Source of the DNA: an uncultured Candidatus Saccharibacteria bacterium
GTDB lineage: Bacteria > Patescibacteriota > Minisyncoccia > Phycocordibacterales > Phycocordibacteraceae
Assembly (NCBI GenBank): GCA_964507275.1
Contig: CAZDPG010000001.1
Span: 404,577-468,576, forward strand
DNA length: 64,000 nucleotides
Direction of reading: 5' to 3'
Numbering within the stretch: position 1 is the stretch's first letter; each line of letters starts with the position of its first letter. Of the stretch, positions 28,536 through 34,628 are shown in pieces. A program made the translations under genes and the position numbers. The notes under the pieces were generated by a model. It was not told the origin of the DNA, searched no databases, and worked only from the letters and a program-made list of their open reading frames with translations.

Positions 28536-29462
28536 TTACACCGTCAGATACTTACGAATAGCCAAGACGGAAGCCACGGCACCGAGTACGATGCCCGAAA
28601 ACATGACGATGGCGAAGACGAGGAAGAAGTGATCGCCGTAGTAGCTTGCGATATTGAACCCGCCGAACCATGTTGCCGTCTTCATCCCTGCATACCAGGT
28701 CGCCGGATACAGAAGGACGAGCACGATGGCTGCCGCAGTAACGCCAGTGATAATCCCGGTGACGATAAATGGGCCCTGGATATAGGCGTTACTCGCGCCC
28801 ACGAGCCGCATCACCGCTACTTCATCCTTAGCGACATAGATTGCAAGGCGGATCGTCGCAAAGGCAATGAGAATTGAAGCTATTGCAAAGAGGATGACCA
28901 CGGCGAACCCAATCTCCCGCGTTGCGCGTATGGCGAGCGAGAGCCGGTCGATAACGTCCTTGTTCTGAGCATAGTTGATCCTATCGACGATCGACGCGCC
29001 GCCGGTCGAGAGCGTCGGCGATGCCTCGAGGAACTTCACGATGCTTTCGTATTCTGAGGGATCCTTCGCGCGTATCTCAAGCGATGCATCGAGCGGGTTA
29101 CCGCCGAGTTCATCGAGCGCCTGAAGCGTGAGCTGATCATTCGCATGACGCTCGCGGAACGCAAGGAGCGTTTCCTCTGCAGACGTGTAGGAGACGTTTG
29201 CCACCTGCGGTAGTTTCTCGAGCTGACTCTTCACGGCGAGGATGTCCGCTTCGCTCGCTGTCGTCACGAAGTACACCGACACGTCGACCTTTTCCTTAAT
29301 CGTCGTCAACGTGAAGGTGAGAAGCGCCGAGAGGAAGATGAGCGAGCTAATAATCGCAAGCGTCACCGTCATGATGAGCACTGTCGCAGCCGACACGGCA
29401 CCGCCGCGTCTAAAGCTCTTACCGCCGCTTATGAGCACCCGTTTGAAAATCATCCAGTCCAT
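28536..29462 (-). CDS. ftsX: Cell-division ABC permease FtsX
   Basis: Start MDWMIFKRVL at 29462, 4 nt after the ftsE stop; 4 TM helices plus a periplasmic domain. The ORF track extends to 29597. Confidence 0.8.
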   Translation of the reverse strand: MDWMIFKRVLISGGKSFRRGGAVSAATVLIMTVTLAIISSLIFLSALLTFTLTTIKEKVDVSVYFVTTASEADILAVKSQLEKLPQVANVSYTSAEETLLAFRERHANDQLTLQALDELGGNPLDASLEIRAKDPSEYESIVKFLEASPTLSTGGASIVDRINYAQNKDVIDRLSLAIRATREIGFAVVILFAIASILIAFATIRLAIYVAKDEVAVMRLVGASNAYIQGPFIVTGIITGVTAAAIVLVLLYPATWYAGMKTATWFGGFNIASYYGDHFFLVFAIVMFSGIVLGAVASVLAIRKYLTV

Positions 29463-29466
29463 ATAG

Positions 29467-30144
29467 CTACAGTATATACTTCCCGCCCATGTCATCACGC
29501 ACCATCTTCCCGCGGTCGATAGTGATGACGCGCTTCCCGATGGCGTCGACAATACCCTTGTTGTGAGTCGTGATGATGATCGTCGTGCCGAGTTCATTTA
29601 TCTTCTTGAGGATCTCGACGATCTCATATGTATTAATAGGGTCGAGATTCCCCGTCGGCTCGTCGGCGATGATGAGGTCCGGCTGATTGACGATCGCACG
29701 GCCGATGGCGATGCGCTGCTTCTCGCCCCCTGAGAGCTGATCAGGGAAATGCTTCGCCTTGTCAGCGAGATTCACGAGCTCAAGGATGTAGGGCACATCG
29801 CTCGCTATCTCATCGTCCGAACGGCCGGCGGCTTCCATCGCAAAGGCGATATTCTCATAGGCCGTCTTATTAGGAATCAGACGGAAGTCCTGGAACACCA
29901 TGCCTATCTTGCGACGGTAGTGGTGCAACGCTGAGCTCGGCAGGTCATTCACATCAATCGACTCAAAGAAAACATTGCCGTTGGTCGGACGCTCCTCTGC
30001 CAAGAGCAGCTTGAGGAGTGTCGTCTTGCCTGCGCCCGAGTGGCCGACGATGGAAACGAATTCTTTCGGGGCGACAGAGAGCGTGATATCCTCGAGCGCT
30101 GCGGTGTCTCCGTACTGTTTCGTTACCTTGTCGAAATAGATCAT
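29467..30144 (-). CDS. ftsE: Cell-division ABC ATPase FtsE
   Basis: Walker A GHSGAGKTT, LSGGEKQR, Walker B LIIADEPT. Confidence 0.9.
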   Translation of the reverse strand: MIYFDKVTKQYGDTAALEDITLSVAPKEFVSIVGHSGAGKTTLLKLLLAEERPTNGNVFFESIDVNDLPSSALHHYRRKIGMVFQDFRLIPNKTAYENIAFAMEAAGRSDDEIASDVPYILELVNLADKAKHFPDQLSGGEKQRIAIGRAIVNQPDLIIADEPTGNLDPINTYEIVEILKKINELGTTIIITTHNKGIVDAIGKRVITIDRGKMVRDDMGGKYIL

Positions 30145-30153
30145 GCGTTCCTC

Positions 30154-31032
30154 CTATTGTACCGTACTCGCGGCGGCTGCGTCTATAAACCCATCAAGGT
30201 CTCCCTCAAGCACTTTCTCTGGATTGGAGGATTCATACCCGGTGCGATGGTCTTTGACCATCTTATACGGGTGGAGCACGTAGGAGCGGATCTGGCTTCC
30301 CCACTCGTTTGCCGTCGTCGCGGCGATTGAGCGGCCTTTCGCCTCAGCCTGGCGCTGTGCCTCTTCTTTGGCAAATATCTTCGCCTTCAAGAGTTCCATC
30401 GCCTTCTCGCGGTTGGCCAACTGACTGCGCTCTGAAGAGACATGCACTGCGAGGCCCGTCGGCTTGTGGAGGAGACGCACTGCCGTCTCGACTTTGTTCA
30501 CATTCTGACCGCCGGCGCCGCCCGAGCGCGCGAAGGAGACCTCGATATCAGCCGGATTGATAGCAACCGCGTCGGTCGCGACCAGGGCTGGCAGGACTTC
30601 GACAAGCGCAAAGCTCGTCTGACGCTTCGCATTAGCATTGAAGGGCGAGATGCGCACAAGCCGGTGCACGCCCGCTTCATGCTTCAAGCGCCCGTACGCA
30701 CCGACACCACTTATCTCAAGCAGCACGTTGCGGTACCCGCCTTTATCGTTCTCATTAGCGTGCAGCTCGCGAACGCGCCAGCCCTGCCGAGCAGCGTATC
30801 CCTCATACATGCGGCGGAGCAGATGCGCGAAGTCTTCGGCGTCATCACCACCAGCGCCAGCGAGCACCGCGAGCGTCGCGTCGCCTGCGTCATGAGGATC
30901 GCCCGAGCCGCCTTCCTTCAAGTTCTGATACTCCCGCACGAGCTCTTGTGCTTTGTCCTTGTCCGCCCAGAAATCAGGCGATGCCATCATCGCTTCCAAT
31001 TCGGCAAGCCGTGTTTCCCGTTCGTCAGGCAT
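30154..31032 (-). CDS. prfB: Peptide chain release factor 2 (as annotated from the first ATG; see findings for the in-frame TGA upstream)
   Basis: SPF motif ([15 protein letters not shown]), GGQ motif ([18 protein letters not shown]) and the peptidyl-tRNA hydrolase domain. The N-terminal [17 protein letters not shown] aligns to E. coli RF2 residues ~30-47. Confidence 0.85.
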
Positions 31033-31044
31033 TATGCACGAGAA

Positions 31045-31410
31045 TCAATGAACGGTATCGTTGTCCACGCTGCCGCCCATCGCCTCTATTTTCTCTTTCA
31101 ATTCTGCCTTGTTCGCTTCAAGATCCTCAATCTCACCAGTGATTTTCCTGCCGAGCTCGATAAGCCCGTTGCGAAAGGCTTCCGCCTGGGGATCTTCCCT
31201 ATCCACCGCGATATGAATGCTCTGGATGCCCTTATCGCGACTATCTCGTAATTCAATGAGTTTCATCTGCACCTCCCGATATTCCCGACGAAGTCCCTGG
31301 AGCTCTATCTTTTCCAGTTCTTCCCTATGCTCGGCAGCTCTCACCACCGCCCGAGGATTCTCTCGATGCGGTACCGCCTCGTCTCCTTGCGCGCTTTTCA
31401 GGTTTTCCAT
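31045..31410 (-). CDS. 121-codon coiled-coil ORF in the same frame as prfB, separated from it by a single TGA (31047-31045)
   Basis: Both ORFs are in the same frame (31410 and 31032 are both multiples of 3), with only the codons TGA-TTC-TCG-TGC-ATA between them. GAGG lies 3 nt before the ATG at 31410. Confidence 0.45.
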   Translation of the reverse strand: MENLKSAQGDEAVPHRENPRAVVRAAEHREELEKIELQGLRREYREVQMKLIELRDSRDKGIQSIHIAVDREDPQAEAFRNGLIELGRKITGEIEDLEANKAELKEKIEAMGGSVDNDTVH

Positions 31411-31463
31411 ATGCCTCGTATTCTACGAGTTTTAGAGGGTATGCACAACTGCGATTACTGCTG

Positions 31464-31536
31464 AGCCGCCTCCCAGGTTTGAACTGGGGACCTACGGTTT
31501 ACGATACCGTCGCTCTACCAACTGAGCTAAGGCGGC
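31464..31536 (-). tRNA. tRNA-Thr (anticodon CGT); CCA not encoded
   Basis: GCCGCCTTAGCTCAGTTGGTAGAGCGACGGTATCGTAAACCGTAGGTCCCCAGTTCAAACCTGGGAGGCGGCT with anticodon loop ATCGTAA. Confidence 0.85.
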
Positions 31537-31582: not shown

Positions 31583-32167
31583 CTATTCTTTATCGGCAAA
31601 GACGACGAGACGCTTAGCATAGCTTCTGGAAACAGTGTTCCAGGCCCCACCGCACGTAACGAGATTGAGATGCGCCTTTCCGTCGAGTGAACCGAACACC
31701 TCCGGGACATCTTCATATTCCCCATAGATTCGAAGTTCGCGCACCACAAATGCAGTGCGTACTCCGTTCTCGTCTTCAACATACACAGTATCCCCTCTCT
31801 GCAATGCAGACAGATTGTCAAACACTGCCGGCAAACCATCTTTCCATCCGTAGTGTCCGGCGATGACGGCACTGCCTTCCTCGCCGGGGCGCGGACCGAG
31901 GGAGAACCATGCCGCATTCACGGGACCTGTAGGCACATCCATTGCTCCCTTCGGGGTGAGGCCTACCGACTCCAGAGCCGTATCGACGCCGATGCTTGGT
32001 ATCGTCAGGCGTGCCGGCAATCCAGATCGTATTTCTTCCTCTCCAAGAGACGGCAACGGACCACTCTCTCCGGGGCTTTTCAGGCCAAAGGAGAAAAGTA
32101 TCAGAACGAGCGCGCACCCAGTAAGGGCGGCTACGAGCTGCGAGTTTTGTTTCTCGTGTCTTTCCAT
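31583..32167 (-). CDS. Sortase (class E/F-like transpeptidase)
   Basis: N-terminal TM; catalytic His region AVIAGHYGW; TLxTC motif (LVTCGGAW) and an Arg near the C-terminus. Confidence 0.75.
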   Translation of the reverse strand: MERHEKQNSQLVAALTGCALVLILFSFGLKSPGESGPLPSLGEEEIRSGLPARLTIPSIGVDTALESVGLTPKGAMDVPTGPVNAAWFSLGPRPGEEGSAVIAGHYGWKDGLPAVFDNLSALQRGDTVYVEDENGVRTAFVVRELRIYGEYEDVPEVFGSLDGKAHLNLVTCGGAWNTVSRSYAKRLVVFADKE

Positions 32168-32813: not shown

Positions 32814-34628
32814 TTATGCAGTACGCTTCTTCAGCGTGACGCTCCGCACTGCCGCGATAACTCCGAGGATGCCAGCGAGAAGGACGACATTCCAGGGAGT
32901 TGTCGCGCGAGGAGGGAGTCCTGTGCTCGGCAGTTTCGGCGAAGCGACGACGACTGTCGCAAACGCGAGGTCTGTTGCGGTCAGCCCATTTGCGCTTCCC
33001 GAGGCTGTCGCAATGTTCGTTGTCGTTTGCGTCAGGTTCGTTTTGCAGGAGAACACCCACGACTCATTGCTTTCAAGCAGGTTGTTCTTATTCAGGTCTC
33101 CTGGATGATCCGAGACGCGTCCAGGCAATCCGGTACACTTATCGTCAGTGATGCTGACGTTGCTCAGGGTCGCAGTACCGGGGTTGCTCACGATATACCG
33201 ATAGGTAACCGCACCGGGGGCGGAAAGCGTCAGTACGCTCGGCACCTTCTCCACGTGAATGAGCGGCGACACAATTGATGCGCCGACGACAACCGTAGCG
33301 CTTGCAACATCGATTGCGCTAATGCCGTTCGCCCATCCGGTCGCGGTGACGGTGTTCGTGTGCGTCACAGAAAGTGTTGTAGAGCATCGGTATACCCAAG
33401 TCTCGTTCACCTCGAGCTTACCGTTTGCATTTGCGTCTCCAGAGGAGAGCACGAGCGGGCTGCAACTATCGCCGACCATCGTGATGGAGGACACCGGAAC
33501 TGTTCCGGTATTGCGAAGTGTGTAGGTGTAGGTCACCGGTCCGGGACCGCTGGGAAGTGCCATAGGATTTGCCGTCTTCACCACATCGATTAGTGGCGGC
33601 ACGACGGGTGCAGGCACACCGATGTCGTTGTTCGTGATAACACAGATCTTATTGTCGCCCGGGGAGAGCGTCAGACGGCCATTGCTGTCGCACGCACCAG
33701 AGAACGTCCGTGTGTAGTTGGCATTGCCGGTTTCAGTCACGGTGTACACAGCTGCTGGCGCCGGGAACGTGTTGGTCACGCCCGAGATGACCGGTTTGCC
33801 ATTCACAAAGAGTGGGAAGTCGGTAACAGTCTTCGTCCCGCCACTATCGTTGATGACCGTCTTGACGACGTTGATTGTCCCCTGCTGCGGATTGCTTCCC
33901 GGTATCGTAGTTCCGGTCGCACATCCGGAAATATCGGTAACACCGGCCGTTGACAGAGTTCCGGTAAGCGCCATTAGTCGACCGACAACGGTTGCTCCGG
34001 ACACCAGAGATACGTTGTTGTTCGCAATAAGCGTTCCGACAAACTGATTGCCGGGACTCCCGTTGATGGTAGCGTCTCGATCAATCTGCCAATAGACGTT
34101 GCAGGCATTCACTCCGGCACCCAAGACGACTGTGGCGGCATTCGTGAACGTAAGGTCGTTATTGATTTGGAAAATCCAGATCGACGAAGCATCGCCGTTC
34201 AATGTAAGAGTGGTGCTAATCGTAGCGTCACCGGAGCGGGTGTACAGGCCTGGTACCGGAGTCATATCAGGAGGAGAGGCGGGGTCCCAGGTAGTACCGA
34301 GGGGCTGGTTCGTGGGATTCATACTTGTCCAAGCGGCCGTAGCGGCCGTCTTGGCAGTCCCCGACAGACCACCGGTGCCGAAGTATCTTGTACCTCCTAC
34401 GGTCCAGGGTCCGCTTACCGAGAGACCCGGATTAACACCGAGATCACCAGCGACCGTGGCACCCAGGGCATCGGCAGTCATCGCCGAGCCGGCAAAGACC
34501 GAGAAGCTCGCCGCTGTCCCGAGATCCGGCGCTACTGCCGCTGTTGCGAAGGCAGTCGTTGGTCCGACAAGAATAAGCACCAGAGAAACGGTGAGCGCAC
34601 TTATCGCGATTTTGTGAGATAGGTTCAT
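32814..34628 (-). CDS. LPXTG-anchored surface protein with an N-terminal ice-binding-like (DUF3494) domain and DUF11-type repeats
   Basis: Signal peptide, then AVAPDLGTAASFSVFAGSAMT (DUF3494-like), two repeats ...VTYTYTLRNTG / ...VTYRYIVSNPG, and C-terminal LPSTG plus a hydrophobic segment plus KKRTA. Confidence 0.8.
   Translation of the reverse strand: MNLSHKIAISALTVSLVLILVGPTTAFATAAVAPDLGTAASFSVFAGSAMTADALGATVAGDLGVNPGLSVSGPWTVGGTRYFGTGGLSGTAKTAATAAWTSMNPTNQPLGTTWDPASPPDMTPVPGLYTRSGDATISTTLTLNGDASSIWIFQINNDLTFTNAATVVLGAGVNACNVYWQIDRDATINGSPGNQFVGTLIANNNVSLVSGATVVGRLMALTGTLSTAGVTDISGCATGTTIPGSNPQQGTINVVKTVINDSGGTKTVTDFPLFVNGKPVISGVTNTFPAPAAVYTVTETGNANYTRTFSGACDSNGRLTLSPGDNKICVITNNDIGVPAPVVPPLIDVVKTANPMALPSGPGPVTYTYTLRNTGTVPVSSITMVGDSCSPLVLSSGDANANGKLEVNETWVYRCSTTLSVTHTNTVTATGWANGISAIDVASATVVVGASIVSPLIHVEKVPSVLTLSAPGAVTYRYIVSNPGTATLSNVSITDDKCTGLPGRVSDHPGDLNKNNLLESNESWVFSCKTNLTQTTTNIATASGSANGLTATDLAFATVVVASPKLPSTGLPPRATTPWNVVLLAGILGVIAAVRSVTLKKRTA

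Follow-up and report, generated by a model that had tools for sequence, protein, structure and literature searches.

Conserved RF2-decoded stop codons and a bridging mini-ORF at the start of prfB point to a possible termination-reinitiation relay in groundwater Parcubacteria

Autoregulation of release factor 2 (RF2) by a CUU-UGA-C frameshift in its gene, prfB, is a textbook bacterial recoding event. Here we describe the region around the prfB gene on the minus strand of a 64,000-nucleotide stretch of contig CAZDPG010000001.1 (the window), where RF2 expression appears to be tied to RF2-decoded stop codons through an unusual bridging mini open reading frame (mini-ORF). In a clade of groundwater Parcubacteria to which this locus belongs, ribosomes probably reach prfB only past two RF2-dependent stop codons, one closing a conserved upstream gene and the other lying over the first codons of prfB itself. 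A termination-reinitiation relay, which would make RF2 synthesis depend on UGA termination, is favoured as the explanation, and in-frame read-through of the first UGA is disfavoured.

The junction is compact, and all its elements are on the minus strand. An upstream ORF of 121 aa (31045..31410), whose product is predicted to be an antiparallel helical hairpin, ends in TGA (31047-31045). It is followed by a pyrimidine-rich 12-nt spacer (TTCTCGTGCATA, 31033..31044) without a Shine-Dalgarno (SD)-like sequence and then by prfB (30154..31032), which encodes a short-form RF2 of 292 aa and has its own stop, TAG. As the first-pass annotation of this DNA had pointed out, the two ORFs share one frame (31410-31032 = 378 = 126 codons), and the TGA, followed by TTC TCG TGC ATA ATG, is the sole stop between them. 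They are bridged by a mini-ORF in the -1 frame (31025..31048, TTG ATT CTC GTG CAT AAT GCC TGA). Its start overlaps the upstream stop by 4 nt (T-TGA, an NUGA overlap), and its stop, TGA-C (31027-31025), overlaps prfB codons 2-3 in an 8-nt overlap (AUGNNUGA), with the prfB ATG lying inside the mini-ORF. The earlier statement that the other frames hold no short ORF0 is therefore correct for ATG starts and fails for this TTG-initiated 7-codon ORF (31048-31025), which ends in TGA-C.

The evidence is comparative throughout and comes from 16 distinct junctions (the window; L007, L010, L012 and L013; L094 to L100; L102, L103, L105 and L107), among which upstream-protein identity falls to 10-45%; these lineages are related, and the counts therefore make them look more independent than they are. 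In 14 of the 16 the mini-ORF is intact, with 6-7 sense codons and with the positions of its start and stop fixed. Its start codon, built from the last sense base of the upstream ORF and the UG of the stop, is GTG in nine lineages, TTG in four and CTG in one; L010, L012 and L013 have a UGAUG overlap as well. The mini-ORF stop is TGA in 13 cases and TAA in one, and the +4 base is C in 13/14. The encoded peptide is not conserved. Constraint is seen in the codons of prfB that the mini-ORF stop overlaps: codon 2 is CCT, GCT, ACT or GAT in 14/16 lineages, its third base being T despite the change between Pro, Ala, Thr and Asp, and codon 3 in those 14 is GAC (12), GAT (1) or AAC (1). Against a background in which T-ending codons account for 15-21% of Ala, Pro and Thr codons and GAC for 47% of Asp codons, a T-ending codon 2 across four amino acids argues for nucleotide-level selection for U-GA-C, that is, for a -1-frame stop over prfB codons 2-3. 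As a control, an off-frame stop at +6 to +8 was found in 4/54 other genes, and at no other junction in the window does an ORF bridge an upstream stop and a downstream start.

The upstream stop shows the same persistence. In answer to the question of conservation raised by the first-pass annotation, it is TGA in 15 of the 16 lineages, TAA in one (L100) and TAG in none. Fourteen lineages have a spacer of 12 nt, L096 has one of 9 nt and L100 one of 18 nt; all these lengths are divisible by 3, and the amino acids that the spacer would encode in frame are unconserved. The prfB start is ATG in 16/16, and an SD-like sequence (a GGAGG- or GGGGG-like tract) was found in none of the 16 spacers, which are pyrimidine-rich. 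L105 was chosen by its RF2 alone; its upstream ORF is not recognisably homologous and the layout is the same. At the same loci prfB itself ends in TAG seven times, TAA twice and TGA once, the ftsE stops are mixed, and L007 and L009, with identical upstream proteins, differ in their prfB stops (TAA vs TAG). Within the window, TGA is found at 1/20 of the other same-strand junctions of 1-40 nt. That neighbouring stops turn over while the upstream TGA persists argues that this TGA is under selection. In two unrelated lineages a second in-frame TGA occupies the third spacer codon (L094 490-501, TGA GTA ATG TGA ATA ATG; L105 1489-1500, TGA ACG CAG TGA TTA ATG, with the hexamer CAGTGA duplicated).

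The mini-ORF offers a simple account of these regularities. An NUGA overlap needs TGA, which may be the reason that this codon is kept as the upstream stop; a -1 shift followed by a +1 shift automatically places the upstream ORF and prfB in one frame; and the spacer grows or shrinks in steps of 3 nt as whole codons of the mini-ORF are gained or lost, which fits the 9 nt of L096. The 18-nt spacer of L100, a lineage lacking the mini-ORF, also differs by whole codons. Other candidate explanations of the junction were tried and rejected. A junction RNA element, either SECIS-like or a hairpin masking the start, finds no support from RNAalifold, which returned neither conserved structure nor covarying pairs at the junction, and single-sequence folds were inconsistent. 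Replacing the TGA by TAA or TAG creates a TAnnnT box in no lineage, which argues against its being kept to avoid a -10 box. A ribosome hopping off CAU or CAG would find no matching codon in frame to land on, and an internal promoter giving a leaderless prfB mRNA would have no TAnnnT box at the right distance within the 18 nt upstream.

We propose, with slightly less than even confidence, that a three-ORF translational relay runs along a leaderless transcript, with prfB as its final cistron, and that the relay is combined with a sensor. The ribosome would release the hairpin protein at its UGA, start again on the G/UUG that overlaps this stop, translate the seven mini-ORF codons, terminate at the UGA-C, a weak stop context, that lies directly over the prfB AUG and start once more at that AUG; both hand-overs would need RF2. 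The second UGA would probably also act as an RF2 sensor: at low RF2, a ribosome paused there could enter the prfB frame by a +1 shift, and rare read-through at the first UGA would also give an RF2-containing product.

The distances at the junction are consistent with such a relay. Overlaps of -4 and -8 nt are classes tied to termination-reinitiation, while coupling across 11-20 nt is variable and a gap of ~20 nt almost completely abolishes it (PMC10666635); the window has the -4 and -8 overlaps, and the direct gap of 12 nt from the upstream ORF to prfB falls in the variable zone. The genome is also SD-poor, with SD-like 4-mers before 6/53 of the longest-ORF starts (ftsE, starting at 30144 with GGAGG in front, is an exception), and an SD-less internal prfB start in such a genome would plausibly need delivered ribosomes. 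Outgroup Paceibacteria, in which the same short RF2 follows straight after tRNA-Thr with no upstream ORF, also count in favour of the relay. TATAAT-like hexamers often lie 5-12 nt ahead of starts in the window (e.g. 10810, 14062, 34628, 35898, 45704, 50636 and 61731), which suggests that leaderless mRNAs may be frequent in this genome.

The upstream ORF itself is preceded by a putative promoter (31420..31448, minus strand), read from the sequence as -35 TTGTGC (31448-31443), a 17-nt spacer and -10 TAGAAT (31425-31420). The -10 box ends 9 nt ahead of the ATG, and the transcript would therefore be leaderless or near-leaderless; we infer that the upstream ORF is the leaderless first cistron behind this promoter. 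The -35/-10 arrangement and its spacing are kept in L010, L013, L105, L107 and L096. A consensus promoter scan did not return this promoter, and its -35 box agrees with the consensus at 3/6 positions only.

The upstream ORF is a separate conserved gene under purifying selection and not the N-terminus of RF2. Its family consists of stand-alone proteins of 105-135 aa, and in the subgroup of the window dN/dS is 0.06-0.18 with synonymous sites saturated (dS 1.3-3.3). The alternative put forward by the first-pass annotation, in which RF2 is coupled to a separate coiled-coil gene ahead of an SD-less 12-nt spacer, is supported. A reading of the ORF as the missing N-terminus or a split domain 1 of RF2, a homology that the annotation had asked about, is contradicted by hhalign, which gave a probability of 0.3% against canonical RF2 residues 1-120; fusing the ORF to RF2 raises the TIGR00020 score by 0.7 bit only. 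In a profile search of 1.84 billion representative proteins the family appeared only as proteins of 105-135 aa, with no RF2 fusion and no long protein. The AF2 model of the upstream protein (pLDDT 77) places helices at residues 19-65 and 74-110 in an antiparallel helical hairpin. No significant fold match was found with Foldseek, the best being the N-terminal arm of SerRS (E = 0.1). Assignment to Seryl_tRNA_N (PF02403) was rejected, as the score of 23.6 bits is below the gathering threshold of 28.2 and 4/14 family members match; this likeness is a generic helical-hairpin similarity.

The C-terminal tail of the upstream protein is conserved as GG-x-x-x-(D/Y)-T-V-(H/Q). It is the best-conserved part of the protein (window 31078-31047), reading GG(N/T)P(S/E)(D/E)YTVQ in the family and GGSVDNDTVH in the subgroup of the window, and it ends exactly at the UGA; it is conserved as amino acids while third codon positions vary. 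The tail could matter for the protein itself or, as a nascent peptide, for termination. Between the window and L007, dS of the upstream ORF (1.30) is ~3x that of the adjacent prfB (0.40), a gap that could come from tight constraint on the codons of prfB or from recombination inside the locus.

The identity of the downstream protein as RF2 is clear from the PCRF (4.9e-41) and RF-1 (2.7e-37) domains, from the SPF (RISPFNA) and GGQ (GGAGGQ) motifs in the translation, and from a score of 348 bits on the TIGR00020 prfB model vs 238 bits on the prfA model. The same 348 bits lie below the curated TIGR00020 cut-off of 370, and the protein is without a full domain 1, which is a ~110-aa helical bundle. 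Alignment to solved structures places residues 4-41 on B. subtilis RF2 27-64 and E. coli RF2 25-61, and the rest aligns from about residue 105-117 onward, its residues from about 44 matching canonical ones from about 117. It thus lacks helix alpha-1 and ~45 internal residues of domain 1 (canonical 1-24 and about 65-104 are missing), and the AF2 model (pLDDT 64) has only two short N-terminal helices ahead of domain 2. Several Paceibacteria records are named only 'PCRF domain-containing protein', as RF2 of this class scores below the NCBI prfB cut-off.

This short form is normal across Paceibacteria, so the missing N-terminus belongs to the whole class and is not peculiar to this locus. The best 120 of thousands of RF2 homologues measure 277-320 aa, nearly all 289-296 aa, and those with source names are from Paceibacteria, Kaiserbacteria or Minisyncoccia. 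In the more distant Paceibacteria listed, no ORF precedes the short RF2, which begins at the homologous Met. A start at ATG 31032 is well supported because the short RF2 starts at the homologous Met across the class, and the suggestion of the first-pass annotation that RF2 is made from there as a 292-aa protein without the N-terminal helix agrees with the class norm of ~292 aa. Four outgroups have no upstream ORF, and 0-3 nt separate the 3' end of tRNA-Thr(CGU) from their prfB ATG (L025 2401-2479, L027 87-163, L030 2423-2503 and L032 2406-2485); 3' processing of the tRNA would therefore leave a leaderless prfB mRNA, like the 'tRNA punctuation' of mitochondria. This tRNA-Thr(CGU)-prfB synteny is widespread in Paceibacteria. 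Two 320-aa homologues (P0024 and P0036, 87-88% identical) are longer at the N-terminus by 27 aa (MRDGGRILIQQTTTVLAVTCEVVYTGA…) that bear no relation to the upstream-ORF family and probably reflect an extended gene call in a lineage whose upstream region differs.

Regulatory use of RF2-dependent UGA termination has a precedent in the tnaC leader, a UGA-terminated ORF of 24 codons that senses tryptophan: inhibited RF2 action stalls the ribosome and controls the downstream genes through Rho-dependent transcription termination ~200 nt upstream of tnaA. The junction described here resembles it in placing such a UGA at the end of an upstream ORF whose C-terminal peptide is conserved; unlike tnaC, the upstream ORF encodes a predicted folded protein of ~120 aa, and the action would be translational and within 20 nt. 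To our knowledge, and in the literature searched, no example of such a bridging-ORF relay has been described. The NUGA 4-nt and AUGNNUGA 8-nt overlaps, the SD-less downstream start and distances within the working range are all shared with known termination-reinitiation coupling (ATGA/TGATG and -8 overlaps; PMC6728339, PMC10666635), from which the junction differs in chaining two overlaps via a 7-codon bridging ORF instead of a direct gene overlap and in having GUG or UUG, not AUG, as the first start. Plant eRF1 likewise ties expression of a release-factor gene to stop-codon handling by its own product (PMC5397192); that eukaryotic circuit uses read-through and nonsense-mediated decay (NMD), whereas read-through is less likely here given the +4 U and, in some lineages, a tandem UGA.

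The closest comparison is with the classical prfB +1 frameshift (E. coli codon 26, CUU UGA C). As there, an RF2-decoded UGA with C behind it closes a short ORF (TGA-C at 31027-31025), the body of RF2 is encoded in the +1 frame with GAC (Asp), at the homologous protein position, as its first codon, and TGA far exceeds TAA, with no TAG, among the stops. Unlike the classical site, the junction has neither a CUU/UUU slippery codon nor an SD-like stimulator (AGGGGG, 3 nt upstream of the slippery codon), and the CUU and the stimulator are nearly invariant in canonical prfB sites (PMC12421855). Its ORF0 has 6-7 codons vs ~25, does not encode helix alpha-1, and has no initiation signal of its own, starting on the G/UUG that overlaps the upstream stop; and prfB keeps its own conserved AUG inside ORF0. 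The first-pass annotation had seen no CUU-UGA-C context, and indeed CTTTGA, CTTTAA, CTTTAG and TTTGA are all absent from the coding strand of 30800-31470. Its broader statement, that there is no classical +1 frameshift architecture, holds for the CUU and the SD-like element and not for the geometry of ORF0, UGA-C, +1 body and GAC, which is present.

Several observations weigh against the relay, in addition to the relatedness of the lineages compared. L099 and L100 have no mini-ORF, L100 being also the TAA lineage, so that the relay is not obligatory; in one lineage with a mini-ORF the overlapping start is only CUG; and the use of CAG vs CAA as the last sense codon is insignificant alone, as background CAG use is 73%. 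A pure relay would make RF2 positively dependent on RF2, which is not homeostatic, and an added +1 escape would have to proceed without a CUU slippery codon or SD-like stimulator, from P-site codons (GCC, GGC, GGA and GAC) that re-pair poorly in the +1 frame. Homeostatic feedback would be gained if the junction were classical autoregulation in disguise, the mini-ORF being a shortened ORF0 fed by upstream coupling: at low RF2 a +1 shift would occur at NNN-UGA-C, at high RF2 termination would turn synthesis off, and the prfB AUG would serve basal synthesis only. The geometry is identical to that of the classical site (ORF0 stop UGA, +4 C, +1 body, first codon GAC), with +4 C in 13/14 and GAC over GAT by 12 to 1 against the 47% background; the stop spectrum mirrors the classical 98.6% TGA, 1.4% TAA and 0% TAG (PMC12421855), and a Parcubacteria relative, L049, keeps a canonical CTTTGA site. 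However, the slippery codon and SD-like element that are lacking here are required in the systems studied (PMC12421855), the varying, poorly re-pairing P-site codons count against this explanation as well, the mini-ORF stop is missing in two lineages, and the prfB ATG kept in 16/16 would be left unexplained. We consider this explanation unlikely. Only a shade less doubtful is the conjecture that the junction is a working, slippery-sequence-independent descendant of the prfB recoding site in an SD-poor organism relying on leaderless mRNAs, where a 7-codon ORF0, translated only through coupling to the stop of the upstream gene, UGA-C and a +1 shift at low RF2 would operate without CUU or SD-like stimulator; a two-UGA relay of a previously undescribed kind would then keep RF2 in homeostasis.

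The fusion proposed by the first-pass annotation, a 418-aa hairpin-RF2 protein made by in-frame read-through at low RF2 and restoring RF2 activity, would account for an RF2-specific stop in 15/16 lineages, for spacers that are always a multiple of 3, and for the lack of in-frame TAA or TAG in any spacer, the extra in-frame stops being only TGA (L094 and L105); it also has a precedent in kind in plant eRF1, which is autoregulated via stop-codon read-through (PMC5397192). Yet the conserved TGA and the shared frame, on which the proposal was based, have a different and simpler cause in the mini-ORF overlaps. The +4 base is U, giving a strong stop, in 10/16 lineages and never C, and +4U lowers read-through (PMC5289835); tandem in-frame UGA codons would make a fusion quadratically rare in two lineages, and L100 has TAA. 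The context is not leaky, no stimulatory structure was found at the junction, the extension through the spacer is unconstrained, and the hairpin is not homologous to domain 1. No natural fusion of ~400 aa was found among the 1.84 billion proteins, and the conserved T of prfB codon 2 would be left unexplained. As the main autoregulatory device, read-through is thus improbable. The underlying intuition of a variant of RF2 autoregulation does find comparative support, since RF2-specific stops before prfB are under selection in the clade, as a non-classical relative of the known circuit. An ordinary operon, in which prfB initiates alone and independently of SD and the TGA, spacing and off-frame stop are inherited or incidental, fits the few SD-like 4-mers of this genome (6/53 starts), the frequency with which short gaps are in frame by chance (7/21) and the fact that the short RF2 works without an upstream ORF in most Paceibacteria; tight spacing might also serve stoichiometric co-production of two interacting proteins, as closely spaced gene pairs are enriched for complex subunits (PMC10666635). 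Against it, TGA, mini-ORF length and the codon-2 T persist where synonymous sites are saturated and neighbouring stops turn over, and such nucleotide-level selection goes beyond what protein function explains; we hold an ordinary operon to be no likelier than classical autoregulation in disguise. An error of assembly or sequencing, or the decay of a long prfB into a pseudogene, is barely credible as an explanation of the junction: the identical protein and locus were recovered on 20 contigs that come from separate groundwater samples and assemblers, which rules out an assembly error and disposes of the concern, raised with the first-pass annotation, about a sequencing error in the TGA, and the architecture is kept in 16 divergent lineages with both the upstream ORF and prfB under purifying selection. 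The window uses the standard code, TGA closing 9/53 long ORFs, a normal but rare stop.

The surrounding genes are, like prfB, on the minus strand. tRNA-Thr(CGU) (31463..31536, identified by ARAGORN), a neighbour kept upstream of prfB across Paceibacteria, precedes the putative promoter, and a sortase gene (31583-32167) lies upstream of the tRNA. Downstream of prfB in the same unit are ftsE (29467-30144; Pfam ABC_tran, with a GGAGG SD in front) and then ftsX (28536-29462, from the gene call). The assignment of prfB itself rests on Pfam, NCBIfam, alignment to PDB structures, homologues and AF2. Upstream of the sortase gene, 32814-34628 encodes a 604-aa protein with Ice_binding (PF11999) and weak CLIPPER_2 matches, whose synteny is kept in related contigs (the L001/L107 equivalents) and which is possibly a sortase substrate or surface protein. 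Elsewhere in the window, on the plus strand, there is a tmRNA gene (1513-1918) whose predicted tag peptide, AKNTLASVKSPYFGMKDFTFAFATA, is unusually long at 25 residues.

Full-text literature searching and a 2025 domain-wide prfB survey returned nothing on this arrangement or on Patescibacteria prfB. Recent surveys of >12,000 genomes class prfB genes as carrying the CUU-UGA-C motif or else as lacking autoregulation (PMC12421855). The clade described here represents a third state of prfB, in which RF2-decoded stops are conserved before and over the prfB start, with the classical geometry and without its stimulators, and in which prfB is wired to an upstream protein gene via the bridging mini-ORF. 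If functional, the junction would mean that selection linking RF2 synthesis to UGA termination can be met by different molecular means, and it would offer nature's own example on which to study relays by termination-reinitiation as well as +1 shifts that need no slippery codon. It would also add to the unusual features of translation in the candidate phyla radiation (CPR), namely an RF2 with a shortened domain 1, a scarcity of SD sequences, and mRNAs that are leaderless or tRNA-processed.

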